This document shows positions 12,152 through 29,159 of a DNA stretch of 64,000 nucleotides, in pieces (within the stretch, counting starts at the first letter, position 1; each line of letters begins with the position of its first letter). The notes beneath the pieces were generated by a model. The model made no database searches and had not been told where the DNA came from. It was given only the letters and a program-made list of their open reading frames with translations. The translations under genes were made by a program, and so were the position numbers. The stretch comes from an uncultured bacterium (GTDB lineage: Bacteria; Desulfobacterota_D; UBA1144; Nemesobacterales; UBA2774), in the NCBI GenBank assembly GCA_963705505.1, contig CAVPJU010000010.1:512001-576000 (forward strand). Direction: 5' to 3'.

Positions 12152-12243
12152 AAAATCCTCCCCGCAAGATTCGGCTTGTCCGTACGAGTTATCATATTAA
12201 TTTTCCTTCCGCATAAGTTTTGGATTAATGGCATAATCAAGAT

Positions 12244-13017: not shown

Positions 13018-13100
13018 CGCGACCTCCTTTTATAAGTACAAGTCTGTATTATTCCGTATTTAATTATTCATCAGTGAACGATCGTGATAAAAAAAACGCC

Positions 13101-13553
13101 TCACCCGTTCTCTAATCTGCCCAATAAACCGATAATCAGTCCCCTCTCATCATCACTGAAAGGCTTGAGCAATTCCTCCACTATCTCCGTCAGCGCACGA
13201 TCCCCTTCTTCGTAGCGGCTCCGGCCTTTATCAGTAATCACGGCCAGAACGCTGCGGCGGTCTTCGGGACAGTCCTTCCTCTCCACAAGACCGTCCGCTT
13301 CCAACCTGTCCACTAGCTGCGTGATATTCGATTTCACGCACAGAAGCTCCTGGGCAAGACGGGTAAGAAGTATCGGCGCTCCTGCTTTTATTAGACGATC
13401 GAGGGCCACGTATTTGGACAACGAGAGTCCGGTAACGGCAAGCGCTTCCTCGACGCGCTGCTCCACAATGTCCGAAGCACGTCTGATTCTCTTAAGGACG
13501 AGGATTTTAGCTTCCCTTTCTTTATCAGAATCTTTATCACATGAATTATTCAT
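13101..13553 (-). CDS. MarR-family transcriptional regulator
   Basis: NITQLVDRLEADGLVER...DRRSVLAVITDKG winged helix. Confidence 0.92.
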   Translation of the reverse strand: MNNSCDKDSDKEREAKILVLKRIRRASDIVEQRVEEALAVTGLSLSKYVALDRLIKAGAPILLTRLAQELLCVKSNITQLVDRLEADGLVERKDCPEDRRSVLAVITDKGRSRYEEGDRALTEIVEELLKPFSDDERGLIIGLLGRLENG

Positions 13554-13595
13554 ATATGAAATATACTTGAGTGAACTAATACCGTCAAGGGACCG

Positions 13596-14492
13596 CTATA
13601 TTCCGGCAACAGCCGGGATAACTTCACGGCCTATTACCTCGATAGGCGTGATCTCATGCGTGTTCGGCATACTGAATATGAAGTGCTGAATACCTATTCC
13701 GGCAAGCCCCCTGCATTGGGCTATAAGGTCGGACGGGGCCGCACCGCCCTCCCCTACATTAACGACACCCAGAACGGTGCGCTCTATCTCATCGTAGGGG
13801 CGGCCGATTTCATCGCAATGACGCCTGAGCACGTCTAATTTTTTTGCTATCTCATCGATGCCGCCTAACGGAGGACCGAACAGGTTGCACGCGTCCGCAT
13901 ACCGGGCAACGAGCCTGAGGGTCTTCTTCTCACCCATGCCGCCCACAAGAATCGGCGGGTGGGGTTTTGAGAGCGGCAGAGGATTGTTTATAGGCTCCGC
14001 CAGCCGATAGTGCTTCCCGTTATAGGGCTTCACCTCACCCGACCACATGAGCTTCGCGATATCAAGCGTTTCCTCGAGACGCTCCATGCGCTCCTTGAGC
14101 GGCGGGAAAGGCAGCCCGAGACCTTGAGCCTCACGCTCGTACCACGCGGCGCCTATGCCGAGGTTTGCCCGTCCGCCGGAGAGGACATCGAGTGTCGTTA
14201 CTGTTTTTATAAGGTAGCCCGGATGGCGGTAGAGTGCGGACGTCACCATAACACCGAGACGCACCCTGCTCGTAAGGGGAGCCAGGTAGCCGAGAGCCGT
14301 GTAAGCTTCAAGCATGGGGTCATGAGGCTCAAGCCCCATCTGAGCCATATCGATTTGAAAGAGGTGGTCCATCACCCAAAGGCTGCTGAAACCCGCCTTA
14401 TCGGCTGCCTCCGCTATCTCACGGAGCTTTTTGCCCGTATTTTGAGGGCTGCCCGGCCAGTCGAAACGTATAACCTGTAATCCTATCTTCAC
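13596..14492 (-). CDS. LLM-class (probably F420-dependent) oxidoreductase, Rv1855c-like
   Basis: WVMDH, TLDVLSGGR, GIGAAWYERE, PPILVGGMGEKKTLRLVARYAD; GTG start with GAGGAA RBS. Confidence 0.85.
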   Translation of the reverse strand: MKIGLQVIRFDWPGSPQNTGKKLREIAEAADKAGFSSLWVMDHLFQIDMAQMGLEPHDPMLEAYTALGYLAPLTSRVRLGVMVTSALYRHPGYLIKTVTTLDVLSGGRANLGIGAAWYEREAQGLGLPFPPLKERMERLEETLDIAKLMWSGEVKPYNGKHYRLAEPINNPLPLSKPHPPILVGGMGEKKTLRLVARYADACNLFGPPLGGIDEIAKKLDVLRRHCDEIGRPYDEIERTVLGVVNVGEGGAAPSDLIAQCRGLAGIGIQHFIFSMPNTHEITPIEVIGREVIPAVAGI

Positions 14493-14865
14493 ATTCCTCT
14501 ACCTCCGCGAGTGTTTTTTAATTACGCATTCCCTAGATAATTATGATGAAAATCACGGTGGAGGGGATGCTTATAATTACATCCGCCGGTGAATTTAGGT
14601 GAATATACATGTCAGATGATTGGTGATGCAGAGGTGAAATCAGGCACGCAGTGATAATCCCACAGGGCGGATACGGCAAAATTTGAAACCGCATACCCCT
14701 ACCCCGCCGGATTGTTATAGAATTAGAAAATTATCTCGGATTTACCCGGATATATAATGACGGATTTATTCAGATACATAGCTCATGCTTCGTGACAGAA
14801 TTATGCACGAAAAAAGCCCGCGATACTCCTCATCATCGGCATACGCCCCCGGGATTTAATCCCGC

Positions 14866-15261
14866 CTACGCGGTGAGCCGCATCCCTTTCTTACGTCTCC
14901 CGAAGGAATAATTAAGACCGCAGGACTCTACCGCCCTCCTCCACGAGCCGAAATGATACTCGGCCGCGGATACGAGTGTCGTCATACCGTTCTTTCTGAG
15001 GATAGAGGGCCTCAGACAATCGCCTTCCGCCCGGAGCCTGTTTATCTCGTTTCTAATCCTCTCCCTCGTCCACTTCCTGTTGTTCCTCGAGCTCTCATAA
15101 TCAATACCGCACGCTTCGAGAGCACTCCTCCATGAGCCGAATGCCTTGCACGCTTTTACATAAAGTGAGGTATGCTCCTTTGCGATATTAGCGGGCTTTT
15201 CCGCATCGGGACTGAAAATCCTGGTTATTTCTCTTTTCACTCTTTCCGCTCGCTTGGTCAT
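14866..15261 (-). CDS. Small basic protein with two FGSWRxAxExCG repeats (homing-endonuclease-associated repeat-like)
   Basis: AFGSWRSALEACG and HFGSWRRAVESCG repeats linked by KWTRERI. Confidence 0.7.
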   Translation of the reverse strand: MTKRAERVKREITRIFSPDAEKPANIAKEHTSLYVKACKAFGSWRSALEACGIDYESSRNNRKWTRERIRNEINRLRAEGDCLRPSILRKNGMTTLVSAAEYHFGSWRRAVESCGLNYSFGRRKKGMRLTA

Positions 15262-15615
15262 GACAATCCATATAACAATATTTATGCCATACGTAAATGT
15301 CTGTTATCACGGGAGATATTGAGGATTCGTCCGCGGGAAATGTGTCTTGTTATCTGACACAGGACACTGGAAGAGTCGGAATTCCGCCCGTCTTTTTATT
15401 ATACAACGGAAATAATCCCCATTGCAATGACCGGACGTACCCGGAAGTCCGGTCACCCGGGCATCCGGGACCATACCGAAGGCTTATGATTCCGGACCCC
15501 TCACCCGCTGCAAATATCTCTCCGCTCGCTAATATAACTTATCATGAAAATTAGCTCTTTATTGTTGTTGTATTCCATGTTAGTTAATATCTAACAAGAG
15601 TCATTCTTAAAGGAG

Positions 15616-17856
15616 ATGACCATGAAGGGTAGGGTGAGCATACTAAGCAAGGTAGTATTCCGTTCTTTTCTGTTCCGGGCTTTTATTTTTTCTTTCCTGC
15701 TGATATCAGTTTACGGTGGATGTAGCGGAGGTGGAGGAGGAGTGGTTCCCCCGCCGCCACCGCCGACTATAGAGGGAAACAAGCTCAATATCCAGATACT
15801 CAACGCTATCATAGGTCCGGACAACCATCCTGTAGCAACAATTAAAATCACAGATGAAAGGGGAAACCCTTTGCAACCTACCGACCTAGATCAATTACGC
15901 CTCATAATCGCGAGGATTGTGGACTCGGGTGAATACATAGACTACATAACGACTAACGAGGATGGAGCCATTCTGCCGTACCGTGAGGATAGTTCCTTGG
16001 GCACGTTCAACGGCCAGGGGGGAGGCGTTTATACCTATACGTTTGCATTTATGCTTCCGCAGGGCTATGACGGCAGCCAGACACACACGGTAGCACTTTA
16101 CGGGTCAAGAAAGGTAGGAAGCCAGACCTGGGTCTCAAACGCTACTTTCGACTTCGTGCCCAACGGGGGCGAAGTCAGGACAATAAGGGACATCGTGAGC
16201 GTCAACTCATGCAATAATTGCCATGACCCTCTTGCCGTACACGGAGGACGCAGGAGAGACCCGAAGCTCTGTATAACATGCCACACATCAAAGATAATCA
16301 ATCCCGATACAGGTCAAGAAGAGGATCTGGTCGACCCCGCTACAGGGAATAGTATCGCCTTTAAGGTTATGATACACAAGATACACATGGGCGAGAGCCT
16401 ACCGAGCGTTATGGACGGCTTTCCCTATATGATAGGTAATAGCGACTTCTCGAGCGTAGTGTTCCCCCAGGACATAAGAAATTGCACGAAGTGCCACGAC
16501 GAGTCCCAAGCGTCCCAGGCTGACGACTATAAGAACGTCCCCACCAGGGCTGCCTGCGGCTCGTGCCACGACAACGTCGACTTCGCCACAGCTACCAATC
16601 ACCCCACGGTGCAGCTCAACGACAACAACTGCTCGGGATGTCATATACCGAGCTCGGGGAACGAATTCGATATATCGGTTACCGGAGCACATACAATACC
16701 GCTTAAATCAAAGACCCTCCCCGGAGTCGTTTTCGATATAGTGAGCGTGACTTCCGCGGAGACAGGCTCGAACAGGGTAGCCCCCGGTGAGCATGCCCAG
16801 GTGCTATTCAGCGTCAGAAACAATAATGGAGATGTTGTAAACCCTCAGGATCTCAATAGACTGTCTCTGACGATAGCGGGTCCCACTACAGATTACGATA
16901 TACAGGACTACCACGGCACAGGAGCGGTTCCGGGAGTAGATAACGTGCTCACAGAGAACGCCTTGAAAGCTTCAGACGGCCCCGACGCCGACGGCAACTT
17001 CGTTTACACATTTAAAGGCATGATCCCGTTGAACGGCTCAGGCACCTACGCGGTCGGCATAGAGGGCTACAAGACCGAGACGGTGGGCGGTGAGAACCAG
17101 ATACTAATCGAGGACGTAAGAGACGCGGGGCATAACGTAGTCAGCTACTTTGCCGTTACGGACCCGGTCCCGGTCCCGCGGAGGACGGTCGTCGACAACA
17201 ATACCGAAGACCAGTACTGCAACTCATGCCACGGGGAGTTCTCAAAGGACTTCAGCATCCACGGAGGCATCCGCAACAACACCCAATACTGCGTCCTCTG
17301 CCACAACCCTTCGAACGACGATATAAGCGTGAGGCCGGTCCCCGACTGGACGGGAAGCGACACTCCTACAACGACCTCGATCAATTTCAGGCAGATGATA
17401 CACAAGATACATACGGGCGAGAACCTTACCGTAACGCCTTACATAATCTACGGGTTCGGGGGAAGCCTGAATGACTTCAGCGACGTCCTCTTCCCGGGCA
17501 AGACGAATGACTGCGCCGATTGCCACGTGCCCAACACGAACATACTCGACCCGGGTATGGGCATACTGGGCCCTGGAATTTTACCGACCATCACCAGGGA
17601 GTTTACGAAGGTGGACGACGAGAACGTCGTTCTGAATACGTTCTCCTTGCAGCCGGTTATTACGGTCTGCACGTCCTGTCATGACGATGTAGGTGTAAAC
17701 GTCGCGGGGAATGCCCTTACGGGCGTGAACCACCTGGGAGGACCGCAGCCTGAGGGAGCGTGCATAAATTGCCACGCCGCGGGCGACCCTCTTGGCGCGG
17801 CGGAAGTGCATCTGGTTCCGCTCCCGTTTGATGAGCGTATAAACCGTCCCCAATAG
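15616..17856 (+). CDS. OmcA/MtrC-family decaheme c-type cytochrome, predicted lipoprotein
   Basis: 10 CxxCH in two pentaheme blocks each preceded by a heme-free domain; duplicated HGG..C..CH..MIHKIH.G motif; YGGC lipobox-like site then Gly/Pro linker; start may be 15622. Confidence 0.9.
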   Translation: MTMKGRVSILSKVVFRSFLFRAFIFSFLLISVYGGCSGGGGGVVPPPPPPTIEGNKLNIQILNAIIGPDNHPVATIKITDERGNPLQPTDLDQLRLIIARIVDSGEYIDYITTNEDGAILPYREDSSLGTFNGQGGGVYTYTFAFMLPQGYDGSQTHTVALYGSRKVGSQTWVSNATFDFVPNGGEVRTIRDIVSVNSCNNCHDPLAVHGGRRRDPKLCITCHTSKIINPDTGQEEDLVDPATGNSIAFKVMIHKIHMGESLPSVMDGFPYMIGNSDFSSVVFPQDIRNCTKCHDESQASQADDYKNVPTRAACGSCHDNVDFATATNHPTVQLNDNNCSGCHIPSSGNEFDISVTGAHTIPLKSKTLPGVVFDIVSVTSAETGSNRVAPGEHAQVLFSVRNNNGDVVNPQDLNRLSLTIAGPTTDYDIQDYHGTGAVPGVDNVLTENALKASDGPDADGNFVYTFKGMIPLNGSGTYAVGIEGYKTETVGGENQILIEDVRDAGHNVVSYFAVTDPVPVPRRTVVDNNTEDQYCNSCHGEFSKDFSIHGGIRNNTQYCVLCHNPSNDDISVRPVPDWTGSDTPTTTSINFRQMIHKIHTGENLTVTPYIIYGFGGSLNDFSDVLFPGKTNDCADCHVPNTNILDPGMGILGPGILPTITREFTKVDDENVVLNTFSLQPVITVCTSCHDDVGVNVAGNALTGVNHLGGPQPEGACINCHAAGDPLGAAEVHLVPLPFDERINRPQ

Positions 17857-17881
17857 GAATAGACCTAAGGACGAACCGAAT

Positions 17882-18202
17882 ATGAAAATGCTTGTCATGG
17901 TTATTCTGATGTCCTCACTGCTCACGCTAGTCTCGTGTGTGAGCAGTGAGGACGAGGGTCAGGACTGGGGCAATATACTTGCCGGCGTCGAGGGATTACA
18001 GCTGACTGAGCAAGACCACCCCGACGGATGGCAAAGGGAAGATTGTTTCGCGTGTCACCCGCTCGAGGTGATACACCAGGAAGACCGCTCGGGGCTGGGG
18101 GTCCTGCTGCTTCAGGACATACGTGAATTTACCGTACAGGAAGGGCTTTCGAGCTGTCCGATATGTCACGGAGATAATGGCGTACCAGCACTTATGGAGT
18201 AG
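17882..18202 (+). CDS. Small diheme cytochrome c lipoprotein
   Basis: LVSC lipobox; CFACH and CPICH. Confidence 0.82.
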   Translation: MKMLVMVILMSSLLTLVSCVSSEDEGQDWGNILAGVEGLQLTEQDHPDGWQREDCFACHPLEVIHQEDRSGLGVLLLQDIREFTVQEGLSSCPICHGDNGVPALME

Positions 18203-18210
18203 TCTTTCAA

Positions 18211-19512
18211 ATGTCAAAACAGATTTTAGGTGCCGCAATAATATTGCTGCTCTCGGCGATGGGGGAGATTGCGGTATACGGGCAGGAGGAGATGATACGC
18301 CCGAGGAGCCTGGGCCTTTACGGAAACACCTTCTTGCTCTTTCAGGCTCCGACGCCGCTCCTCAACGCGGACGGCGATAAAAAGTACGTCTACCCTTTTT
18401 ATCAATACTTGGACTTAAGCTCCAACTATCCGGATCATAATGTGTACTTCAACACATACCTGAGAGGGAGAGAGATCTTTAACGGGGACCAGGATTCGCT
18501 CGACGTATATAACGCGTTCGTCGATATCTCGAACACCCCCGGCACGTACGAGATAAGGCTCGGCAGACAGACCATGACCGAAGGTATCAATTACATACTG
18601 ATGGACGGAGCCCTCGTCAGAATAAAGCCCCTGAAGGGGCTTGAGTTAACGGCCTACGCCGGATACCAGGAAAAAGACATTCAGCCCGATCCCGAAAGAC
18701 CCACTAACAACTTTGGAGTATTCGGAATAAAACTTAAAACGGACGCCATACTCGGCTCGATAATTTCAGTAGGGTATGAGCTCTACGACCCGCAAGACTT
18801 CTCATCGAGGCAGTTCATAAACCTGGCCTTCAACAGGGCCGTGCCATTCACTGATTACGCCGACGTGTACGCGCTCGCTGAGATCGATGTAGGGGAAGGG
18901 AACCTGGGCCTTCTCACGACAGGAGTGGGTATTGCCGTATTGAGGTCACTTTACCTCAACCTCGAATACGATAACTACAACCTGGACCAGGAGAGAGACC
19001 AGTTCAGACTCGATCCGATCTTCGATTTGTTTTCGGTCGGCAGGCTCCAGCAAGCAAGGGTCGGATTAACGTTCACACCCGCATCATTCCTTGAGATAAA
19101 CGGGAGTTACGCCTATTCACACTACGATCCCTCGGATGACAACGGTACGAACGGGAACATCGCAAAGCTCGGCTACATGTTCAATTTCTGGAAGGAGATC
19201 GGGCTCAGGGCGTTCCAGGGGTTTTACTATATCGACGGGAGCGGCAACACCGATTACGCGGTTGGTGTCAATACGAGCCTCTATGAAGAAATAAGGAATG
19301 GATGGCAGCTTGAGTTCGCTTTCGCATATGCTTACTATAACAAGATTACGAACCAGAGCGGAAACGCATTCAGCTACATAGTCGGCAACGAGTATGTGCT
19401 GAAGAAAGACCTCGTTTTGAGAACAGCGGTTGAGTTCAATACAAACCAGGATTTCCATAAAGACATAAGGGTGGATTTGGGATTAAGTTATTTCTTTTCG
19501 ACGAGCCTGTGA
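18211..19512 (+). CDS. Putative outer-membrane beta-barrel (porin of a porin-cytochrome complex)
   Basis: Signal peptide, Cys-free, Tyr/Gly/Asn-rich alternating strands, C-terminal VDLGLSYFF barrel-like strand; sits between multiheme genes. Confidence 0.7.
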   Translation: MSKQILGAAIILLLSAMGEIAVYGQEEMIRPRSLGLYGNTFLLFQAPTPLLNADGDKKYVYPFYQYLDLSSNYPDHNVYFNTYLRGREIFNGDQDSLDVYNAFVDISNTPGTYEIRLGRQTMTEGINYILMDGALVRIKPLKGLELTAYAGYQEKDIQPDPERPTNNFGVFGIKLKTDAILGSIISVGYELYDPQDFSSRQFINLAFNRAVPFTDYADVYALAEIDVGEGNLGLLTTGVGIAVLRSLYLNLEYDNYNLDQERDQFRLDPIFDLFSVGRLQQARVGLTFTPASFLEINGSYAYSHYDPSDDNGTNGNIAKLGYMFNFWKEIGLRAFQGFYYIDGSGNTDYAVGVNTSLYEEIRNGWQLEFAFAYAYYNKITNQSGNAFSYIVGNEYVLKKDLVLRTAVEFNTNQDFHKDIRVDLGLSYFFSTSL

Positions 19513-20132
19513 TGAAAAGAGCACAATTGATTGTATTCATGCTCGCGGCAGCGCTTGCTGCGTGCGGAGCTCAGAACAAGGAACATGACGCCTCGGGGGC
19601 GAAGCCCAAGGTGCCGCTCGACGTGAGGATGAACTTCTCGCACGAGACGCATAAGAAGGTAATGGAGAAAGAGGGATTCCAATGTTTCGTATGCCATCCG
19701 ATGAACGTCAAGCCGAAAGACGAAAAGAGCATAGAAGAGGCCATAAAGATGTCGAAGCAGGCATTTTTCCCCGGAAAGGAGACTTGCCACTTCTGCCATT
19801 ATAACCCCGAGGCCGGCAACATTGCCCCGGGCCAATGCAGCTTATGCCATTTCAACATGGCCGAGATCGAGCCCAAGAACCACAACTTCAACTGGAGTGA
19901 AAAACACGCCATATTCGCGAAAGCCGACGAGGAATCGTGCCAGAACTGCCACGCGCCTAGATTCTGCGAGGACTGCCACAAGAGAAGAGACCTCCCTACC
20001 ATCATGGTCCACGACAGGAATTGGAGGTTCGTCCATGGAATAGAGGCTCGTGCGAACCCCAGGGAGTGCGGTAATTGTCACGAGATTACGTTCTGCAATA
20101 CCTGTCATACGAAGGGCGGATATGATTATTAG
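19512..20132 (+). CDS. Heptaheme cytochrome c lipoprotein
   Basis: LAAC lipobox; 7 CxxCH; c3/c7-like FSHETH start, then two H..W...H...A..CxxCH..CxxCH repeats; TGATG overlap with the barrel gene. Confidence 0.88.
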   Translation: MKRAQLIVFMLAAALAACGAQNKEHDASGAKPKVPLDVRMNFSHETHKKVMEKEGFQCFVCHPMNVKPKDEKSIEEAIKMSKQAFFPGKETCHFCHYNPEAGNIAPGQCSLCHFNMAEIEPKNHNFNWSEKHAIFAKADEESCQNCHAPRFCEDCHKRRDLPTIMVHDRNWRFVHGIEARANPRECGNCHEITFCNTCHTKGGYDY

Positions 20133-20703
20133 GTACATTCTTACAGCTATGTTGATAGTGCTCCTCCCAACTGTCCTTCTGTCGAAGGAAAAAGAAAAAG
20201 AGGAAGAGGAGGAAAACCCTCATACCGCTATGGTTGGCAACGAGTTCGGATGCCTCGACTGCCATACGGAGGTGCCCAAGGAGGGGATGAAGAGCCCGAC
20301 GTATTTCCTCGTGGACGCGCCCTCGGAGAACTGCCTCGGGTGCCACGACGAGACGATGCACCCGGGGTCGAAGGAGCACGAGGGGAAGGAAGCGAAACCG
20401 CTCCCCGGGGACGAGAACGGCAAGATAGCGTGCTTCACCTGCCACGACCCGCACCCGGAGGGGGTGATAAAGGGGAGGAAGGTGTACGGGGCTGAGCTCG
20501 ACCAGAGGAGCATGGATTTCATGAGACTCATAGTGGGGCCCGAGCTCGGGAAAGAGCTGGGTACATCGATAGAGTTCGATCCCGACAAAAAGGTCTATCT
20601 CAGGGAGCCGATGAACAAGGTATGCAGCACATGTCATGAAACAATAAAATACAAGGGGGTCTATACACCATGGTACAAATTTTCAGAAATGTTTACGTAT
20701 TAG
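20122..20703 (+). CDS. Tetraheme cytochrome c
   Basis: Signal peptide from ATG 20122; CLDCH, CLGCH, CFTCHDPH, CSTCH. Confidence 0.85.
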   Translation: MIIRYILTAMLIVLLPTVLLSKEKEKEEEEENPHTAMVGNEFGCLDCHTEVPKEGMKSPTYFLVDAPSENCLGCHDETMHPGSKEHEGKEAKPLPGDENGKIACFTCHDPHPEGVIKGRKVYGAELDQRSMDFMRLIVGPELGKELGTSIEFDPDKKVYLREPMNKVCSTCHETIKYKGVYTPWYKFSEMFTY

Positions 20704-21146
20704 CTTTAATGCTCATAATCCCCGCGGCGGCTTTCGCTCAGGACACGAGCGTACAGCAGAAGGGGATAGAGATATTCGTCGAGCATAGGTGTTATACCTG
20801 CCATACAGTTAAGGCGGAAGCCGCGCAGATAGACGCGGCAAAAGTCGCCTTTGCCAAAACGAAGGGAGTCGAATCCAAGGAGACTGCAGAAGAGAAGGAA
20901 GAGCCCAAAGGCGGCGACCTCTCCAACATAGGGACCGACAGGACTCAGGAATGGCTTACTAAATTTCTGAAAGACCCGAAGGATTATTTCAAGGACACTC
21001 CTGACTGCAAGAAACTCGCGAAGAAGAAGGAGAGGAAGAAGTTCAAGGGCACGGACGCTGAATTCCAGGATCTCCTGGCATGGCTCTCATCACTCAAATA
21101 CGGCGACAAGCAGGAAGCGGGCTTCAAGTCGTGCTTAAAAGAATAA
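20670..21146 (+). CDS. Monoheme class I cytochrome c, paralog 1
   Basis: AFA signal peptide, CYTCH, GGDLS, FLKDP; no Met or His after the heme motif. Confidence 0.85.
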   Translation: MVQIFRNVYVLALMLIIPAAAFAQDTSVQQKGIEIFVEHRCYTCHTVKAEAAQIDAAKVAFAKTKGVESKETAEEKEEPKGGDLSNIGTDRTQEWLTKFLKDPKDYFKDTPDCKKLAKKKERKKFKGTDAEFQDLLAWLSSLKYGDKQEAGFKSCLKE

Positions 21147-21218
21147 GTGTGTGACGATGACTACTTCGAATCGATTAAGCTTAAATTTAACGAACATCTT
21201 CAATATATTTGCAGTAAG

Positions 21219-21261
21219 AATCTATGTAAGGTGTCATAACATATGACACCTTACATAGATT
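21219..21261. repeat. Perfect 20-bp inverted repeat with 3-nt loop
   Basis: AATCTATGTAAGGTGTCATA-aca-TATGACACCTTACATAGATT. Confidence 0.9.
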
Positions 21262-21374
21262 TTAATTTTCTCAAGAATAAATAGATAGTACATACGGGTA
21301 GTTATCGTAATACGAATGTGGCCTAAAATATGCACACTAAATTATAGTGAATGAATAATCGAGAGGTGTATATC

Positions 21375-21851
21375 ATGGTACATATTTACAGATATGTTTA
21401 CGCATTGGTACTGATATTAGCGGTATCCGCGTTAGCGCACGCCCAGGAAAGTAGTGTACAACAGAAAGGAATAGAGATATTCGTCGAACATAGGTGTTAT
21501 ACCTGCCACCAGATAAAAGCCGATCAGGATGCTATTCTAAAAGCAAAAGAAGCCTTAGCAAAGTCAAAAGGAGTTGAATTCAAACCAGAAGAAGAAAAAG
21601 GAGAAAAAGGGATAGCGCCCGACCTTTCGGATGTCGGCAAAAGATGGGATGCGAAATCACTTGAACCCTTTCTAAAAGATCCAAGACCTTACTTCAAGGA
21701 CACACCTGAATGTCAGAGTAATGCAAAGAAATTTTATAGAAAAAGATTTAAAGGAACACAAGACGACTTCAATGCTCTTATAGCCTACCTTACGAGCCTA
21801 AAATATGATTCATACAATAAAGATTTTGTATCATGCTTGAAGGAGCATTAA
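21375..21851 (+). CDS. Monoheme class I cytochrome c, paralog 2
   Basis: AHA signal peptide; shares SVQQKGIEIFVEHRCYTCH with paralog 1; GAGAGG RBS before ATG 21375. Confidence 0.85.
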   Translation: MVHIYRYVYALVLILAVSALAHAQESSVQQKGIEIFVEHRCYTCHQIKADQDAILKAKEALAKSKGVEFKPEEEKGEKGIAPDLSDVGKRWDAKSLEPFLKDPRPYFKDTPECQSNAKKFYRKRFKGTQDDFNALIAYLTSLKYDSYNKDFVSCLKEH

Positions 21852-21986
21852 TAACATTCTGGAGCAAGATTAGAAGTTTATTTTTTTCACGGCAAAAAAT
21901 TTAATTTCTCAGCAAGAAAACGTTTATCAATTAATTTAAGAGTATGAAATCTACGGCTTATACTCCTTCTCTTCGCGGGGATTGTT

Positions 21987-22502
21987 ATGGAAAAAGAAGA
22001 CGTCACATTAGATTCTTCCGAATCCACAAATGACAATCTGAAAGGAAACTCAAAGCGCGAATTTCTTTCCCAAATATTCCTAATACTTGGTGCTGTATTA
22101 GCTTATGGTCTGTTTGCGCTCGAAGGTATGTTATTTATCGTCCCGAAAAGAAGAGAAACAGAAAAAATAAAGATATACGGAGGCCGGCTGAGCCAATACA
22201 AGTTGGGCAGTGTGAAGGCATTTTATGATCTCGAAGGCAATGAAATTTTGATAATGCGGGACGAATCGGGACTCAAGGCTTTTAGCACAGTCTGTCCACA
22301 CTTGGGATGCAGAGTGCATTGGGAAAGCGACAAGAATGAATTTTTCTGTCCCTGTCATAAAGGGGTTTTTAACACAAACGGAGTTGCAATTTCCGGCCCG
22401 CCGGCGAAAGCCGGTCAAAGCCTGAGAAAAGTGTCCATAAGCGTCGATGAAAATAGTCAAATAGTGTATATAGAGGTAAATAAACCAAGGATCAAAGCCT
22501 GA
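21987..22502 (+). CDS. Rieske [2Fe-2S] subunit of a Rieske/cytochrome b complex
   Basis: Tat-like KREFL plus TM helix; CPHLGC and CPCH boxes; GPP. Confidence 0.93.
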   Translation: MEKEDVTLDSSESTNDNLKGNSKREFLSQIFLILGAVLAYGLFALEGMLFIVPKRRETEKIKIYGGRLSQYKLGSVKAFYDLEGNEILIMRDESGLKAFSTVCPHLGCRVHWESDKNEFFCPCHKGVFNTNGVAISGPPAKAGQSLRKVSISVDENSQIVYIEVNKPRIKA

Positions 22503-22504
22503 TA

Positions 22505-23581
22505 ATGAAGGGTAAATCCATACTATCCATAAATGGTCTCGTTAAAAAGTTAGACGAGATGTTTCCCTTTGATTGGGAAATACTGAGACAGGCAGGCGCA
22601 GAGCCTGTACCGCACCATTTAAAGAAATGGTGGTTTTGCCTGGGCGGTACGGTTCTTTACCTATTTATAATTCAGGTTTTAACAGGCATCGCGCTTACTT
22701 TTTACTACATTCCATACCCTCAGGAAGCCTTTCAGAGCATTGCCAGAATCACACAGGAGATAAGATTCGGATGGTTCATCCGTTCTTTGCACAGGTGGGC
22801 TTCTAATTTTTTAATTGTTGCGTTGTTCTTCCATATGTTCCGCGTCTATTTTACCGGTGCTTACCGACACCCCAGACAACTCAACTGGTTAATAGGATTC
22901 ATGCTTTTATTCATCGTTCTAACATTCGGTTTTACAGGATACTCGCTTATTTTCGAGCAACAAAGTTTCTGGGGTGCTACGGTTGCGACTAATCTCACGG
23001 ATGCCGTGCCGTTTGTTGGACATACCATCGCGTACTTTTTACGCGGAGGATCGGTTATCGGCGATAACACCCTGACAAGGTTCTTCATGCTCCATATAGG
23101 AGTCCTTCCGACATTAGCTTTCATTCTAATCGGACTCCACATTCTTTTAATCCGCCTTCACGGCGTTACGGAATTATACTTCGAGGGCGAAATTGTGCCG
23201 GATGAGAAGCGTTTTTTCCGTTTTTTGCCCGACCACGTAATTAACGAACTCATGCTCGGCGTACTGCTTCTTTACCTGCTTACAATTCTGGCATTAACTT
23301 TTCCTGTCGGTCTCGGCACACCCGCGGACCCAACCGTCACCCCGGAGCACATAAAGCCGGAATGGTATTTCTACTTCAATTTCCGTCTTCTTAAACTAAC
23401 CTCTCTTAACGTCAGTGTTGTCTTCACATTGTTTCTCTGCTTAGCGATTTTTTTATGGCCATTTATCGAAGAATTTTTGCGAAAAAAAATTAAATTCCCC
23501 GATGTTCTGTCGGTTATGCTCGGTCTTGTTTTTGTTCTGATATTTTTGCTTTTTACAGTGTGGGAAAGCTTTGCACCATAG
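22505..23581 (+). CDS. Cytochrome b (unsplit, b6-like) of a Rieske/cytochrome b complex
   Basis: WWFCLGG, RSLHRW...FHMFRV and FMLH...LH heme b histidines, PEWY Qo motif. Confidence 0.93.
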   Translation: MKGKSILSINGLVKKLDEMFPFDWEILRQAGAEPVPHHLKKWWFCLGGTVLYLFIIQVLTGIALTFYYIPYPQEAFQSIARITQEIRFGWFIRSLHRWASNFLIVALFFHMFRVYFTGAYRHPRQLNWLIGFMLLFIVLTFGFTGYSLIFEQQSFWGATVATNLTDAVPFVGHTIAYFLRGGSVIGDNTLTRFFMLHIGVLPTLAFILIGLHILLIRLHGVTELYFEGEIVPDEKRFFRFLPDHVINELMLGVLLLYLLTILALTFPVGLGTPADPTVTPEHIKPEWYFYFNFRLLKLTSLNVSVVFTLFLCLAIFLWPFIEEFLRKKIKFPDVLSVMLGLVFVLIFLLFTVWESFAP

Positions 23582-23607
23582 CAAATATATACTTGTGAGA
23601 GGCTATA

Positions 23608-25206
23608 ATGTCACTTAATGCAAAAAGATGGATCGTAGCTGGACTGTCATTTTTTCTGTTAGCAGCTCTTCTAATAGTTTCATATAGGGAATCGCAGCGA
23701 AAGCTCGTAGAAGAGAGGCAGGTTGCCATCGTAACAGCTGATAGCAGAGCATGCGTAGATTGTCATAAGACCGATCACCCCGCATTAGTGAAGGAATGGG
23801 AGTACTCCAAGCACGCTAGAGTCGGAATAGGTTGCGTCGAGTGTCATGCCGCTAATAGAAATGATACCGATGCCTGGAAACATGAAGGAGTATACATATC
23901 AGCCCTGGTTACCCCCCTTCGTTGTGCAAAATGCCACGAAAAGGAATATAAGGAGTTCGCTAACTCTCCCCATGCGAGAGCGGCAGAACTTATTTTTAAC
24001 CCGGATAACGCGCTAGCGGGAAAAACAGTTAAAGTTGCCGGACAAGGTAATGTTTCAAATATCGCAAGAAGTTGTCAGGAATGTCACGGAAGTATTATCA
24101 AGTTTCTAAGAGACGAAAAAGGCCAAATAGTCCGTACCGGCTCTCAGAAAAAGCCTTTTATAGATCCTGATACATGGCCTAACAGCGGCATTGGCAGGTT
24201 TAATCCCGACGGCTCCAAAGGCTCGTGTCATGCATGTCACTCACGCCATGCGTTCCAGGCTGAGCTCTCCCGCTCACCCCAGACCTGTGGTAAATGTCAT
24301 ATGGGACCGGATTATACAGAGATTGAGACCTATAATGAATCGAAACACGGCATTCTATTTTACCCAAACCGTGAAAGGATGGACCTTGACAAGAGAGGCG
24401 AATGGGTATTGGGACGGGATTATTCGGCCGCTCCTACCTGTGCAACCTGCCATATTAGTTCTTACATGTCGGCTCAAGGATTTGTTCAGAGTGGTTCTCA
24501 TAATGTAGGCGAACGAATAAGCTGGAACCTTTTACCTGTAATAAGTACGAAAGTAAATCTTGTTGTTTATGAAGACGGTTATAGTGAGGACTATCCCGAA
24601 ACAAAGGAAACACCGAATATAGGCGATGAAATCATTACAACCGAGACAGTGGTTGAGAATGAAAAGGTTGTAAACAAACAAGTGAGAAGAAAAGTTTCAG
24701 ATGTTATAAGTTCGGATGATAGAAGAGAAAAGATGATAGGGGTTTGTCTGAACTGCCACAACGACACGTATATAGATAATTTTTACAATCAGTACGATAA
24801 GTTTGTCGAGTATTATAACAATATATTCGCTGAACCGGCACAGAATCTCATGGACAGTTTACAAGCCGACGGCTTAATAAACCCGGGAGCTCCACTTGAA
24901 AGCCAGGTACAATGGGCGTTCTGGGACTTATTGCATCGTGGGGGAAGACAAGCAAGGATTGGCGCAAGCATGATGGGGCCGAGTATAACACGACAGGGTA
25001 TGTATCAAGTTTCAGAAACCTTTTATTCGAAATTCCTCCCTGCAGTAATAAACGCAGCAGCACAGAAAGGTCCTGATATGGAGAAAAAATATCGCATGAT
25101 GGTGGATAAAGAGCTTTCGCGTCAAGATCGTACGTGGATTGAGGAACCACTGCTGAATAAAACAAAATCGCCCAAAAAAACTGATAAACAAGGCTATGAG
25201 AAATAG
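23608..25206 (+). CDS. Membrane-anchored octaheme cytochrome c, hydroxylamine oxidoreductase (HAO) fold family
   Basis: 8 CxxCH; CHSRHAF, CGKCHMGPD..E.Y.ESKHG, APTCATCH, HNVGERISW, GASMMGP family motifs; N-terminal TM helix. Confidence 0.88.
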   Translation: MSLNAKRWIVAGLSFFLLAALLIVSYRESQRKLVEERQVAIVTADSRACVDCHKTDHPALVKEWEYSKHARVGIGCVECHAANRNDTDAWKHEGVYISALVTPLRCAKCHEKEYKEFANSPHARAAELIFNPDNALAGKTVKVAGQGNVSNIARSCQECHGSIIKFLRDEKGQIVRTGSQKKPFIDPDTWPNSGIGRFNPDGSKGSCHACHSRHAFQAELSRSPQTCGKCHMGPDYTEIETYNESKHGILFYPNRERMDLDKRGEWVLGRDYSAAPTCATCHISSYMSAQGFVQSGSHNVGERISWNLLPVISTKVNLVVYEDGYSEDYPETKETPNIGDEIITTETVVENEKVVNKQVRRKVSDVISSDDRREKMIGVCLNCHNDTYIDNFYNQYDKFVEYYNNIFAEPAQNLMDSLQADGLINPGAPLESQVQWAFWDLLHRGGRQARIGASMMGPSITRQGMYQVSETFYSKFLPAVINAAAQKGPDMEKKYRMMVDKELSRQDRTWIEEPLLNKTKSPKKTDKQGYEK

Positions 25207-25390
25207 AGCGCTCTCGGCGTGGCATGGTATTATTATAACTCTATTTCTGGTGATGCCCGGAATAATTATTCCGGATTTATAAACAGGGATTCAAAATATT
25301 ATGAGGGTAAAAAACAATAAGAATTATGGACATTTATAACACACACTTCCGTATTTAAAAATAAACGTCTAAAGGAGAAGAAATCCAGTC

Positions 25391-26107
25391 ATGTTCAAAG
25401 AGATAACAGATCTATTTGGAGTTACTGCGTCCAATGCCACAGGTTTAGTAAAAGGACTTAATGGGGGGATTGTTTCAGAAGATCCGGGAATGAGGCTTAT
25501 ATCATTCGTGGCTCTCGGTCTATGCCTCTTAACAATAGTTCTTGTCGTGTACAAACTTATATTCTTGCGAAGGGATTCTTCAATAGGTGTAACAACCAGA
25601 TGGATTTTTTTGATCACGTTTATAATCCTTTCCCCGCTGACTTATTTCATTAGTTTCGGCATTGGAATTGAAAAATCAAAGCCCGTTGAATTCTGTAACA
25701 ACTGCCATATAATGAACAGTCACGTGGAAGACATGAAGGACCCCGATAGCGAAAGCATTGCTTCCCTTCATTATAATAATCGCTGGATTTCCGACGACCA
25801 ATGTTACACCTGTCATTCGGATTACGGGCTTTATGGAGCAGTCGGAGCAAAATTTGACGGCATCAGGCACATAATGGATTACTACGTTATGGGTTATCCG
25901 AAGAAACTAAAGATACGGGGCACCTATAACAACGAGAGATGTCTTTTCTGCCATGCCCCTGTCGCATCTTATCAAGAAGTTAAAGAACATCAAGATTATG
26001 CGGCGGAAATCAAATCGAGTAAACAGTCTTGTTTCGGTTTAGACTGTCACGTTTCTCCCCACCCTGATGAAACAAAGGAAATAGAGGAAACCTGGAGGAC
26101 GAAATGA
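25391..26107 (+). CDS. NapC/NirT/NrfH-family membrane tetraheme cytochrome c (quinol dehydrogenase)
   Basis: Two N-terminal TM segments; FCNNCHIM (CxxCHxM), CYTCH, AKFDGIRH, CLFCH and atypical CFGLDCH. Confidence 0.82.
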   Translation: MFKEITDLFGVTASNATGLVKGLNGGIVSEDPGMRLISFVALGLCLLTIVLVVYKLIFLRRDSSIGVTTRWIFLITFIILSPLTYFISFGIGIEKSKPVEFCNNCHIMNSHVEDMKDPDSESIASLHYNNRWISDDQCYTCHSDYGLYGAVGAKFDGIRHIMDYYVMGYPKKLKIRGTYNNERCLFCHAPVASYQEVKEHQDYAAEIKSSKQSCFGLDCHVSPHPDETKEIEETWRTK

Positions 26108-26316
26108 ATTCAAAAACAAATTATTTTAATGTATTTGTAATAATTGCCGGCACGCTAAACATCTTGGGAATGATTTTAATCATTATTCCTGTAGTTGAAC
26201 TTACCCCGCTTACACTGATTATCTCTGCAGTTTTTGGGGGAGGTTTAGTGATACTTTCAATTGCTATATACGCCGCAGTTGTAACAAGGGATCTTATAAG
26301 ACGTGGCATCCTCTAG
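26104..26316 (+). CDS. Small two-TM membrane protein
   Basis: ATGA overlap with the NapC-like gene, GGAGG RBS, two hydrophobic helices. Confidence 0.65.
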   Translation: MNSKTNYFNVFVIIAGTLNILGMILIIIPVVELTPLTLIISAVFGGGLVILSIAIYAAVVTRDLIRRGIL

Positions 26317-26372
26317 CAGAGGATCTCCGCTCATATACGGGTTCTGCACTAATCCTCCGCTCCTTATGAATT

Positions 26373-26410
26373 TCCTCCCCCTTCAAGGGGGAGGACTAAG
26401 GTGGGGGTGA
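26373..26410. repeat. REP-like palindrome
   Basis: TCCTCCCCCTT-c-AAGGGGGAGGA followed by GGTGGGGGTGA, between convergent genes. Confidence 0.6.
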
Positions 26411-26546
26411 TGAATCCCCCTTCATCCTCACACGCTTGGCGTGTTTTTACGATTTCTGCGGGGCTTCGTGAATTTCAGAGGGCGCAATACAGACCATAAC
26501 CGCTGAGGGTCTCTGATTGAAGATACCGGACCTCTCTCAAGTCATA

Positions 26547-26969
26547 TCATTCGATATTTTTATAGAGGAACCTGACGAGGTCGGTAGTGGTTACTATCCC
26601 TGTGAGGTCGCCTTTTGCGTTAACGATCATGATGGAATGAAGGGAGCTGTCCGAGAGAATCTTCGCAGCGTCCTTGAGTGAAGAGTCCTCATCGAATATG
26701 ACGAGCTTGCCGGTCATGACGTCCTTGATGTTATAGGTGTGGTCGAGGAGCGTGTCGAGCATCCTCGTGTCGGTGGAATCGAAATCGAATATCAGCTTGA
26801 ATATGTCCTGCGTCGAGATAATCCCCACCGGCTTCTTACCCTTGAGCACAGGGACGTGGTGTATTGTGTTCTCCCTGAATATCCTCGCCACGGCACTCAG
26901 GTTCTGGTTATCGTGCACGGAAATGACATCCGCGCTCATTATCTCCTTTACCTTAACGTTCTCAATCAT
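26547..26969 (-). CDS. CBS-domain pair protein
   Basis: KVKEIMS, IHHVPV, VGIISTQD, IKDVMT, GIVTTTD. Confidence 0.9.
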   Translation of the reverse strand: MIENVKVKEIMSADVISVHDNQNLSAVARIFRENTIHHVPVLKGKKPVGIISTQDIFKLIFDFDSTDTRMLDTLLDHTYNIKDVMTGKLVIFDEDSSLKDAAKILSDSSLHSIMIVNAKGDLTGIVTTTDLVRFLYKNIE

Positions 26970-27169
26970 AATCCGTCCCTCGCATCTTATTTTTTGCTAT
27001 GGATTATACACACTCGACGACACCGGTAAACAAGCGCCGGGGCGAAAAACCCCTTATCACTAAAATTATACTGCCCGCTCCGTTGAGATGAAAGATAAGT
27101 ATATTATCTTTCCCTGATGAGGTCGCTTCGGGCACGACATATGTGTGATCTCAGCTCCGAAGAATAACA

Positions 27170-27346
27170 ATGAGCAGAATCGTAATCAGCGGCTCAGGCA
27201 TCTACACACCCACGGATTCCATTTCCAATGACGAGCTTGTCGCTTCTTTCAACTCCTATGTCGAACAATATAACGGCAGCCGCGAAAAAGAAATCATGCG
27301 TGGAGAGATAGAGCCGCTTAAAAAATCGAGCGCCGGATACAGCTGA
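27170..27346 (+). pseudogene. N-terminal remnant of a beta-ketoacyl-ACP synthase III (PA3286-like FabH)
   Basis: Hand translation MSRIVISGSGIYTPTDSISNDELVASFNSYVEQYN...GEIEPLKKSSA then TGA after 58 aa; resembles the N-terminus of long FabH-type KAS III. Confidence 0.65.
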
Positions 27347-27405
27347 AGCGGGTCTTATCAAACAATAGCGCGCCGGAATTATCATACGTATACGAAGCGG
27401 GAAGA

Positions 27406-27849
27406 TCACATGAGCATCTCAGCCCTGTATCCGAAATATACCCCGTTATCTATGAACCTTAAGGTTTCGGGAACAACTTTGAAGAAGGCGTAATACCCGG
27501 CCCCCCGAGGCAGTTTGTCGCTCCCCATAAGCTCGGTCAGGAAGGGATACTTTTTCTCGAAAACATTTCTCGCCAGCTCCGCTTCCTCTTCGCGCACCTC
27601 ATAAGCTCTCCCCATTATCTGCAGCCCCCGGACAGTCCTCCAGTCGGCATGATCCGTGCTTATAGTGACGGCGACTTTGGGGTTGATCGATATATTGAGC
27701 GAGTGCTCAGAATCCGGGTTTGAAAGGAAATACAAGGTAAGTCCGTCACTCGCATAAAACAGGGACGCCGCATAAGGGTAGTTATCTCTCGATGTTGCGA
27801 GGCTCATCGTATTATGTCCGTGTAGAAACTCGGTGACTATATCTTCCAT
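27406..27849 (-). CDS. Pyridoxamine 5'-phosphate oxidase-like flavin-binding split-barrel protein
   Basis: MSLAT, PYAASLFY, SEHSLNI..NPKVAVTI, RGLQIMG; start 27849 preferred over 27939. Confidence 0.82.
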   Translation of the reverse strand: MEDIVTEFLHGHNTMSLATSRDNYPYAASLFYASDGLTLYFLSNPDSEHSLNISINPKVAVTISTDHADWRTVRGLQIMGRAYEVREEEAELARNVFEKKYPFLTELMGSDKLPRGAGYYAFFKVVPETLRFIDNGVYFGYRAEMLM

Positions 27850-27939
27850 TTCATAAACCGTTTGCTTAAAAGAATTCTGAGCCCGTGCCCGGAAAGACCG
27901 GGACGGTTTTCTCGGTGAAGCGGCGGCCCGGATTGTCAC

Positions 27940-28245
27940 TCACCACCTCATAACTGTTTTCCACTCGCCTGCGGTGTGCTCCCCCGTCATCTCTATCCAT
28001 TCCATGTGAATAGCATCATCGGGACAGGACTCGACGCAGTGTCCCTCGCTGCCGCACGTATCGGCGCGGACAAGAAGCGCAAAATCGTTATTCACGATCT
28101 TGAGGGATTTCGGAGTGCATGCTTCGACACACTTCCCGCAGCCCGTGCACTTTTCAAGGTCTATGTCAGGAAGCCATTTGTAGCTGCCTTCTCTCATGCC
28201 TTTATATACTTCCATTTTTTCCTCCGTATATCGTATTAATCCCAT
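27940..28245 (-). CDS. 4Fe-4S dicluster-type ferredoxin
   Basis: CTGCGKCVEACT and CGSEGHCVESCP (second motif has Glu in place of one Cys); start uncertain. Confidence 0.82.
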   Translation of the reverse strand: MGLIRYTEEKMEVYKGMREGSYKWLPDIDLEKCTGCGKCVEACTPKSLKIVNNDFALLVRADTCGSEGHCVESCPDDAIHMEWIEMTGEHTAGEWKTVMRW

Positions 28246-28368
28246 CCCCACTTTCCGCCAGCACGGATTCAATTCCCATATCAGAGCCGCTCGTTCGGCA
28301 TTCCGGTTGCGCCTCTTTAAATTATCAGTTCCTGGTGGCAATTACGTCAAGGACAGAAGTCGCACTGA

Positions 28369-28390
28369 GATTGAGACAAATGTCTCAATC
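28369..28390. promoter_or_regulatory. Palindromic operator candidate upstream of the ferredoxin gene
   Basis: GATTGAGACA-aa-TGTCTCAATC, a perfect 22-bp dyad, directly after the Crp/Fnr gene. Confidence 0.55.
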
Positions 28391-28445
28391 ACCGCGGCAT
28401 GTTCTTTTGATAACTCCTGTAAGCGGGGGTCGGGAGAAAAAATTT

Positions 28446-29159
28446 TCAGGCGAGGAGATTTTGAAGCGCGGATTTGTCCCTAATAACGGTAGTACGACGG
28501 CCGCAATCAATCAACTCCATTTTTTTGAACAGCTGAAGAGCCCTGCTGAGCGTTCTTCTCGACATGCCGGCCATATCCGCCATCTCCTCCTGACTCAGGC
28601 TGAGCTTTATAACGATCCCTTCCGGGGAGGGTTCGCCGAACTCATCGCAAAGCCTCAGGAGGAGCGAAGCGAGGCGCTCCTCGGACGTCGCTAGGGCTAT
28701 GTTCCTGAAACCTTCGTATGCTTTTGAGAGCTCTTCTCCGAGAGTCTCCGCCAGCCTCAGACATACGGGCCCGTTCTTTTTAAGCAGGCCCAGGAAATCC
28801 TCTTTATCTATAAAGCTCAATTGAGATTCCTCGACGGTCCTCGCGGTAAAATCATGGGGCTTTCCCGACAACGCCGCTCTCGCTCCGATCACGTTGCCGG
28901 CCGATGCGTAACCCAATACTGCACTTCTGCCGTCCTGGGAATGAATGTAAAGTTTGACGCGCCCGGAGCACACACAATAAACGCCGCGCGGTTTTTCTCC
29001 CTTCAGGAATAAGACGAAGCCCTCGGGATAAACGAGTCTCTGGAGCAAGCCTTCGAGCTCCAGAACGCCCGAATTATCGAGACCCGAAAAGATGCCGCCT
29101 GCCCTCAAGCTGCACGTATGACAGGTGTTATATTTCTGACGGGTTGGCGTTTTCCTCAT
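28446..29159 (-). CDS. Crp/Fnr-family transcriptional regulator
   Basis: N-terminal CHTC, cNMP-binding barrel (SGRVKL), ERLASLLL, LSQEEMADMAGMSRRTLSRAL HTH. Confidence 0.92.
   Translation of the reverse strand: MRKTPTRQKYNTCHTCSLRAGGIFSGLDNSGVLELEGLLQRLVYPEGFVLFLKGEKPRGVYCVCSGRVKLYIHSQDGRSAVLGYASAGNVIGARAALSGKPHDFTARTVEESQLSFIDKEDFLGLLKKNGPVCLRLAETLGEELSKAYEGFRNIALATSEERLASLLLRLCDEFGEPSPEGIVIKLSLSQEEMADMAGMSRRTLSRALQLFKKMELIDCGRRTTVIRDKSALQNLLA

Follow-up and report, generated by a model that had tools for sequence, protein, structure and literature searches.

A predicted quinol-to-surface electron conduit with interchangeable inner-membrane modules in uncultured bacteria of the class UBA1144

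Electron conduits that span the cell envelope have been described from several lineages as single gene clusters. In Rhodoferax ferrireducens one cluster is reported to hold mtrABC together with two cymA genes and mtrH (PMC6295460), and among iron oxidizers PCC3, PCC4 and mtoAB-mtoD-cymA are given as single-cluster conduits (PMC5566968). Porins of the porin-cytochrome (Pcc) type are described as having 18-22 strands and lying beside a 5-14-heme cytochrome, with associated inner-membrane cytochromes in some clusters (PMC4245776), and the Geobacter cluster extHIJKLMNOPQS, which joins a porin and multihemes with a Rieske protein and a cytochrome b, is linked to selenite and tellurite (PMC5877670). 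A Rieske/cytochrome b pair next to a reductive HAO-type octaheme is reported from Caldithrix (Cabys_2558-2556, PMC5317091) and from anammox bacteria (Kuste4569-4574 in Kuenenia, PMC12954380). Here we analyzed a locus that shares parts with each of these. It lies in a stretch of 64,000 nucleotides (contig CAVPJU010000010.1 of assembly GCA_963705505.1, positions 512,001 to 576,000; hereafter the window) from an uncultured bacterium of the class UBA1144 and is, on balance, best read from its genes as a route for electrons from menaquinol outward to the cell surface, with two entry points at the inner membrane.

The locus (15616-26316) is filled by twelve open reading frames (ORFs) on the plus strand, which in order carry 10, 2, 0, 7, 4, 1, 1, 0, 0, 8, 3 and 0 CxxCH motifs, 36 in all. 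A further motif of atypical form, CX4CH (C214-C219-H220), is the fourth of the NapC-type gene; it is the same in 12 of 12 aligned homologs and brings the locus to 37 heme motifs. The initial annotation, made from the letters alone, had counted 37 c-type hemes in 12 co-oriented genes, and this was borne out. Its family calls stand as well, by matches to TIGR03507 for the decaheme, PF00355 for the Rieske protein, PF00033 and PF00032 for the cytochrome b, PF13447 for the octaheme and PF03264 for the NapC-type protein. The density of hemes is not due to chance, since only 12 ORFs in the whole 2.88 Mb genome have two or more CxxCH motifs and six of these sit in the locus. All 12 genes are under purifying selection when compared with relatives, with a ratio of nonsynonymous to synonymous divergence (dN/dS) of at most about 0.3. 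The junctions from gene 1 to gene 12 measure +25, +8, -4, -8, -34, +204, +135, +2, +26, +184 and -4 bp; five of them overlap or are at most 2 bp wide. Three are gaps of 135-204 bp and the composition breaks after gene 6, therefore we regard the locus as two parts and not as one uniform operon. Three RNA runs from the same study, mapped to 12000-31999, gave no cover of the locus and have no bearing on expression.

Genes 1-6 make up the outer core. Gene 1 (15616-17856) encodes an MtrC/OmcA-family decaheme (425.5 bits, cut-off 209.3) that is predicted to be surface-located and has MtrF as its closest solved structure (3PMQ, E 2e-30). A disulfide switch is known for Shewanella MtrC; the decaheme of the locus has no cysteines besides a lipobox-type Cys36 and those of the heme motifs and would thus lack this switch. 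A cysteine pair was seen inside an insert in three decaheme homologs (L038, L040, L041). Gene 2 (17882-18202), which directly follows the decaheme in complete loci, encodes a diheme cytochrome c of 106 amino acids (aa) that belongs to no family and is a predicted lipoprotein (Cys19). Gene 3 (18211-19512) encodes an outer-membrane beta-barrel of 433 aa, for which 22 strands and no plug domain were counted from the secondary structure of a model (predicted local distance difference test, pLDDT, 87.1). The best fold matches were TonB-dependent receptor barrels (Z 18-20), and MtrB matched at Z 16.1. No Pfam or NCBIfam family scored above cut-off, and a sequence profile found no solved relative. 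At 40% identity or more 98 relatives of the barrel were found, and a search among representatives at 50% identity gave 220 with E up to 0.001; when 70 distant relatives were scanned, 69 had no NCBIfam hit and one had a weak Opr hit. Barrels 80-86% identical to that of the window occur in records of Candidatus Dadabacteria / Thermodesulfobacteriota, and a search for a plasmid match to the barrel found none. The heptaheme cytochrome c of gene 4 (19509-20132; 207 aa), whose gene overlaps that of the barrel by 4 bp, is a predicted lipoprotein with Cys19 invariant in 21 of 21 sequences; no solved relative was found, and we infer it to be a candidate wire threading the barrel. The core ends with a predicted periplasmic tetraheme cytochrome c of about 192 aa (gene 5, 20125-20703) and a monoheme class I cytochrome c (A; gene 6, 20670-21146, PF00034). 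The latter is the last gene of native composition, with a GC content at third codon positions (GC3) of 0.62. It is a paralog of monoheme B, encoded by gene 7, and both weakly resemble the model of cbb3 subunit II.

With the Mtr systems (MtrCAB/CymA and the R. ferrireducens cluster) the locus shares an MtrC/OmcA-family decaheme lipoprotein, an outer-membrane barrel and a NapC-family quinol dehydrogenase, and as in R. ferrireducens two kinds of inner-membrane entry lie in one cluster. The second entry there is MtrH/CbcL, whereas here it is a Rieske/cytochrome b complex. The outer membrane differs too, as the locus has a 433-aa barrel with 7-, 4- and 2-heme partners but no MtrA decaheme and no MtrB. 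No MtrA/DmsE decaheme was found in the genome, where a single ORF has 10 hemes, and the best score in the locus was 35 bits against a TIGR03508 cut-off of 192. None of the 120 class genomes had a match above cut-off to the model of the 26-strand MtrB/PioB porins (TIGR03509), in a scan whose 14 control genomes gave no positive control. Judged by its proteins the locus is not a member of MtrCAB. With the Geobacter Pcc cluster (OmbB-OmaB-OmcB) it has in common a small barrel in the range of 18-22 strands and neighboring 5-14-heme and lipoprotein cytochromes, but it differs by the MtrC-family surface cytochrome, by a barrel without a family model, and by having NapC and Rieske/cytochrome b inside the cluster. 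It would work like an Mtr or Pcc conduit. PCC3, PCC4 and mto also combine an envelope-spanning conduit with an inner-membrane redox protein in one cluster, but they have other cytochromes, larger barrels where stated, and either a five-helix inner-membrane protein (IMP) or CymA only; for Uet the source describes no inner-membrane module in the cluster (10.1101/2022.05.06.490989).

At the inner membrane, gene 11 (25391-26107) encodes a NapC/NrfH-type membrane tetraheme with two predicted membrane helices (37.9 bits to PF03264, cut-off 24.1). Its first motif is CxxCHxM, in which C102, C105, H106 and M108 are invariant among aligned homologs; with the significance of this motif taken from PMC8840924, we predict the protein to be a quinol dehydrogenase. 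Against the solved structure 2J7A the match reached E 0.28 only. Coupled to this gene is gene 12 (26104-26316), for a 70-aa protein with two predicted membrane helices and no family. Between the core and NapC lies a low-GC3 stretch opened by gene 7 (21351-21851, PF00034, GC3 0.35), for monoheme cytochrome c B, and followed by gene 8 (21987-22502), for a Rieske [2Fe-2S] protein with a KR-type Tat-like signal. The usual Rieske box 2 is CPCHGSxY. In our alignment box 2 of gene 8 is CPCHKGVF, without both the serine and the tyrosine that raise the potential by about 130 and 65 mV, respectively (PMC12954380), and because these are absent a low-potential Rieske center is predicted. Gene 9 (22505-23581) encodes a cytochrome b of 358 aa in which a b6-like N-terminal part is fused to a subunit-IV-like C-terminal part, with the four heme histidines and PEWY retained. 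Its Cys45 (WWFCLGG) corresponds in the alignment to the cysteine that binds heme ci in cytochrome b6 (FYCLGG), and a 38th covalent heme, a heme ci on Cys45, is therefore likely. With Rieske boxes, four heme b histidines, PEWY and adjacent genes (2-bp gap), the features of a Rieske/cytochrome b complex are present, and we infer that it runs a Q-cycle.

The last member of this group, gene 10 (23608-25206), encodes a 532-aa HAO-fold octaheme with an N-terminal membrane anchor (PF13447, 82.5 bits), from a family with 4552 hits among 8000 scored candidates. IhOCC is the closest solved relative (4QO5, E 1.5e-46); 6H5L and 1FGJ match too. All operon-linked octahemes, including that of the window, form one clade (FastTree support 1.0) nested in a free-standing family. 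We defined this clade from the tree as 15 rows, 7 of them without known context, and compared it with the 108 rows outside (123 in total). Within the clade MGPDYTHWHG shifts stepwise to MGPSITRQG, and the pattern PD[YF]xxWHG is intact in 0 of 15 clade rows as compared to 106 of 108 outside. Likewise, WHHE is intact in 1/15 vs. 107/108 rows and the tryptophan in motif 4 is present in 1/15 vs. 108/108. A one-residue deletion hides the window-type segment from such a pattern count, and the motifs of core-linked octahemes were read directly from the loci. The window octaheme has DY, LHRG and MGPSITRQG where the subfamily has a near-invariant Asp-His pair after motif 6 and WHHE...MGPDYTHWHG. This pair was aligned to 1FGJ/6H5L, and we take the signature residues, partly by assumption, to belong to the heme 4 pocket. 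In HAO proteins seven hemes are described as serving transfer and one, heme 4, as catalytic (PMC8042395). With 36 changes over 250 conserved columns (median 4) the window octaheme is among the most altered, whereas seven non-motif histidines and Met455 are invariant in all 123 rows. Decay to a pseudogene was considered and rejected, as dN/dS is 0.07-0.14 (about 0.09 for the window octaheme) and every heme motif is kept. The structure model was weak (pLDDT 63.9) and was not used. The initial annotation had taken gene 10 as an HAO-fold octaheme; with its active-site signature eroded it is probably not a working HAO-type enzyme, and its residues suggest that catalysis was lost or changed while a wire function was kept. 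Related folds are reported to be used in extracellular transfer, as in OcwA and OmhA (PMC9250108).

Comparison across genomes showed an outer core with interchangeable inner-membrane modules. Among the 120 class genomes the decaheme occurs in 24 and the barrel in 25, in nearly identical sets, and the octaheme in only 4; the core order decaheme-diheme-barrel-heptaheme-tetraheme-monoheme is conserved in three families. In 13 of the 25 barrel genomes NapC follows the core monoheme directly, with no cassette, and two (G000, G076) have the 12-gene form. In another two (G002, G010) the core is followed by a second Rieske block, composed of a 5-heme protein that is ExtKL-like (73 bits, cut-off 250), a Rieske protein, a different cytochrome b (35-39% identical) and another 5-heme protein, and in three (G005-G007) such a block lies about 11-12 kb downstream. 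One genome (G017) has no inner-membrane gene adjoining the core, and four (G069, G070, G074, G075) were left unclassified in this count, to which no statistic was applied since kin are not independent. Both G076 and the metagenome locus L058 show the 12-gene order as well, with 45-93% identity per gene, so that the two halves, joined in one system by the initial annotation, do co-occur in other genomes; the order is partly present in L054-L056, G080 and G082. In two genera the cassette is lodged between monoheme and NapC, in L058 with a gap of 24 bp. In G002 the conduit is directly followed (L145:9502-19430) by a 9-heme + cytochrome b561 pair and then by further inner-membrane cytochromes, a Geobacter-like set. 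These include a 670-aa 11-heme/cytochrome b561 fusion (CbcL-like) and a 506-aa 6-heme NapC-domain protein (ImcH-like), both named by architecture only; ImcH homologs are reported only in Fe(III) reducers (PMC6295460).

The compositional break lies at the boundary of these modules. GC3 is 0.61-0.72 in genes 1-6 (genome 0.64, sd 0.08) and 0.31-0.48 in genes 7-12, under the genome 5th percentile of 0.51, and the same step is present in G076, L054 and L055. The second half is thus likely a later-acquired cassette. The heptaheme tree matches taxonomy, and the window NapC falls outside the clade formed by the usual copies of its genus and three other genera. Monophyly of the NapC copies of the source genus was rejected (approximately unbiased test, p-AU 0.001, for a group named after seeing the tree), monophyly at family level was not, and no donor was established. 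The genes for the Rieske protein, the cytochrome b and NapC and the small gene 12 have a synonymous divergence (dS) to relatives of 0.2-0.5, as compared to 1.1 for the octaheme and 0.5-2.0 for the core. These lower values suggest that the four genes were recently exchanged.

The 204-bp spacer between the halves is 93% conserved among five assemblies (the window and four others). It holds a palindrome, GTGTCA-N7-TGACAC (21231-21249), which is kept in 5/5 aligned spacers and is a predicted activator binding site, and a sigma-54 (-24/-12) element (21319-21334, plus strand), found by motif scan and conserved in the alignment, which is the predicted promoter of the second half; rpoN is present in the genome. 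In the window a longer inverted repeat (about 21217-21263; hairpin z -9.95) encloses the palindrome. A conserved terminator between the halves was considered and rejected: the long hairpin occurs only here and relatives keep just the core palindrome, for which reason a protein-binding site is preferred. Scans for sigma-70 promoters and terminators gave chance level, and a search of the window for FNR and CRP boxes found neither. An AT-rich promoter module of about 200 bp (21147-21374) recurs with 80-85% identity at C4:531-722 and C1:283142-283258 before unrelated genes, which may reflect either a shared regulon or a mobile promoter. The palindrome alone, with 1 mismatch, occurs 6 times genome-wide vs. 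4-9 in shuffles, not above chance, so that its support comes from the longer module. Since the spacer holds the sigma-54-type element and the palindrome, the module recurs and rpoN is present, the cassette is predicted to be separately inducible.

Taken together, the favored outward reading would work as follows. At the inner membrane either the NapC-type tetraheme or the Rieske/cytochrome b pair would oxidize menaquinol. From there electrons would travel via periplasmic cytochromes and the predicted 22-strand barrel to the surface decaheme, with the heptaheme threading the barrel and the diheme and tetraheme as adaptors. Entry through the NapC-type protein would be ancestral, with this protein acting as a simple quinol dehydrogenase when acceptors have a lower potential. 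Where the acceptor potential is high, as with Mn(IV), soluble Fe(III) or humics, the added Q-cycle could give extra proton motive force. The octaheme would descend from a reductive HAO-type enzyme and may now be a cytochrome c1-like acceptor and relay of the Rieske/cytochrome b complex, and the cassette would be switched on separately from its sigma-54 promoter. This reading is supported by the Rieske box without serine and tyrosine, by PEWY and the four histidines, by the CbcL- and ImcH-like proteins in G002 and by the genome, in which menaquinone pathway genes are present (MqnC-like hits were below cut-off) and RuBisCO was not found at 93.6% completeness; other carbon fixation routes were not searched. 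The MqnC-like gene was seen as two pieces in different frames (C10:120609-121636). The genome further encodes a type II secretin, three oxygen reductases (two of the aa3 and one of the cbb3 type), an alternative complex III, a second Rieske/cytochrome b, and a NosZ-like protein (426 bits, cut-off 625), and no Nar/Nap-size molybdoenzyme, NirK or NrfA was found in it. The gene content fits a heterotroph with the conduit as its anoxic outlet. That all parts form one extracellular electron transfer system, as initially annotated, holds in that every part from quinone to surface is present, but the cassette is optional (absent by the core in 13/25), compositionally alien and under its own predicted promoter. 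A more far-reaching reading, in our opinion possible but doubtful, is that of a third conduit architecture, with an MtrC-type decaheme served without MtrAB by an unnamed 22-strand barrel, a Q-cycle complex grafted twice independently in Dadabacteria, an HAO-type nitrite reductase in stepwise conversion to a catalytically dead cytochrome c1 substitute, and proton-pumping mineral respiration as a swappable cassette.

Several observations weigh against outward transfer through one joint system. The compositional difference and the own predicted promoter mean that co-regulation of the halves is not assured. The NapC-type protein is under the NrfH and NapC equivalog cut-offs (45.8 vs. 134.2 for TIGR03153, 30.1 vs. 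310.6 for TIGR02161). Among 80 metagenome octaheme loci, 17 have the Rieske-cytochrome b-octaheme triad but no core gene, several with short upstream sequence, 59 have neither and 4 have core genes; moreover, neither a barrel nor a decaheme match accompanies the cassette in G080 and G082, and the other Rieske block of G014 likewise comes with no barrel match, the three assemblies being fragmented. The distal histidine is retained in 12/15 octaheme clade rows (108/108 outside), and it is also missing from IhOCC, which PMC9250108 lists as a nitrite reductase, so that loss of catalysis is not proven. Core and NapC could be the conduit, and Rieske/cytochrome b/octaheme a separate periplasmic reductase of altered specificity (for nitrite, hydroxylamine, NO or a sulfur oxyanion) that landed in a heme-rich island. 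In favor of this, the Caldithrix and anammox modules, which also unite a Rieske protein, a b6-like cytochrome b and an HAO-fold octaheme replacing cytochrome c1, are proposed nitrite reductases. They differ from our locus in that they are not tied to an outer-membrane conduit, and here the octaheme has an eroded signature and the Rieske protein neither Ser nor Tyr. We consider two separate units unlikely, though the strongest of the competing explanations, as the cassette is placed within the core, erosion of the signature falls precisely on the operon-linked clade, a second and different Rieske block occupies the same slot, and no nitrate reductase to supply nitrite was found in the genome.

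The direction of flow could also be inward, with Fe(II), Mn(II) or reduced humics oxidized at the surface, electrons passing via the monohemes to aa3/cbb3, and NapC and Rieske/cytochrome b running in reverse in a mixotroph. With three oxygen reductases electron uptake towards O2 is feasible, and the alternative complex III and the likeness of the monohemes to cbb3 subunit II point the same way. This is also in line with the mto clusters of iron oxidizers, which join porin, monoheme and CymA, and with MtrC-family proteins reported from iron-oxidizing Gallionellaceae (PMC9900912). Reverse flow is less needed when no RuBisCO is found, however, and a predicted low-potential Rieske with menaquinone, as well as ImcH/CbcL-like neighbors in a relative, fits quinol oxidation; inward flow ranks next below separate units and appears improbable to us. 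Non-metal partners at the surface have been proposed for some Pcc clusters and for Geobacter ext; here such a partner could be elemental sulfur or polysulfide, selenium oxyanions, or another cell in interspecies transfer, but we give this little chance. Pcc clusters are reported also in organisms that do not reduce solid Fe or Mn (PMC4245776). The ext cluster, in which a porin, several multihemes, a Rieske protein and a cytochrome b are joined as in our locus, acts on selenite and tellurite and is described as not needed for Fe(III) reduction (PMC5877670), which also counts against the favored outward reading; in addition, the second Rieske block is headed by the ExtKL-like protein. On the other hand, ext has no MtrC-family decaheme or NapC, its rhodanese and selenoprotein are absent here, and the cytochrome b is fused here (358 aa). 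None of the ExtP, ExtO, ExtKL, ExtI and ExtH families was matched in the locus (ExtP 219.8 vs. 290, ExtKL 15 vs. 250, no rhodanese), which also has no molybdoenzyme gene and ends in an MtrC-family protein.

That this combination is not a described system, as the initial annotation had it, holds in part. Single-locus conduits are known already (Rhodoferax, mto, PCC3/PCC4, ext). New are the MtrC-type terminal on an unnamed barrel, the two Rieske modules at one core and the eroding octaheme. No description of the combination was found in the literature searched, from which subscription journals were largely and supplements wholly excluded, so that a mention may exist. The occurrence of mtrCAB in Desulfobacterota is covered by PMC12133095, in the available text of which the occurrence of Rieske proteins or UBA1144 does not appear; porin-cytochrome operons in Dadabacteria are given one sentence in the FeGenie paper (PMC7005843), and in a preprint surveying Dadabacteria genomes 'iron' and 'cytochrome' are absent from the main text.

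Some further features of the loci and their surroundings were observed. Frameshifts, by assembly error or decay, split the barrel of G076 (L026:5759-7061) and the decahemes of G077 and G007 (L039:14398-16550; L042:14617-16780), and G073 and G072 have an insertion upstream of the decaheme, a monoheme protein (L028:2168-3646; L031:16871-18442) with an EB_dh domain in the scanned copy. Upstream of the core, in most relatives as here, lies a divergent small gene with HNH_repeat (PF18780) domains (14866-15261, minus strand), and in its region (14866-15350) the sigma-54-like element TGGCA...TTG is conserved and a related palindrome lies at 15342. After the locus, 27940-33401 holds genes for a ferredoxin, a Crp/Fnr regulator, two TIGR04053 radical SAM proteins and a protoporphyrinogen-oxidase-like protein, a set that recurs near the core in many relatives and probably serves heme supply and anoxic regulation. 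A 58-aa ORF (27170-27346) that at its start is similar to a 372-aa protein encoded next to the core in G097 (L032) is probably a gene remnant, and 40811-42619 encodes a 602-aa glucose/sorbosone dehydrogenase-family protein with one CxxCH. At contig ends (C5, C9) we also found two near-duplicate 1040-aa six-heme lipoprotein-like proteins (L141:148-3258; L142:7270-10413); the scanned one has weak similarity to MtrC domains II/IV only, and they are candidate extra surface cytochromes.

How energy is conserved during electron export is an open question, and the complex that links quinol to the outer-membrane conduit is unsettled in many lineages. The genomes studied here offer a natural comparison, in which the same outer core occurs with NapC alone, with NapC and the Rieske/cytochrome b/octaheme cassette, or with the second Rieske block, and the octaheme clade makes a testable series from a likely enzyme to a likely wire. 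Screens based on MtrB would miss this conduit, because its barrel is outside the tested Pfam and NCBIfam models. For a widespread group of uncultured soil and groundwater bacteria, respiration of minerals or humics is predicted from the locus.

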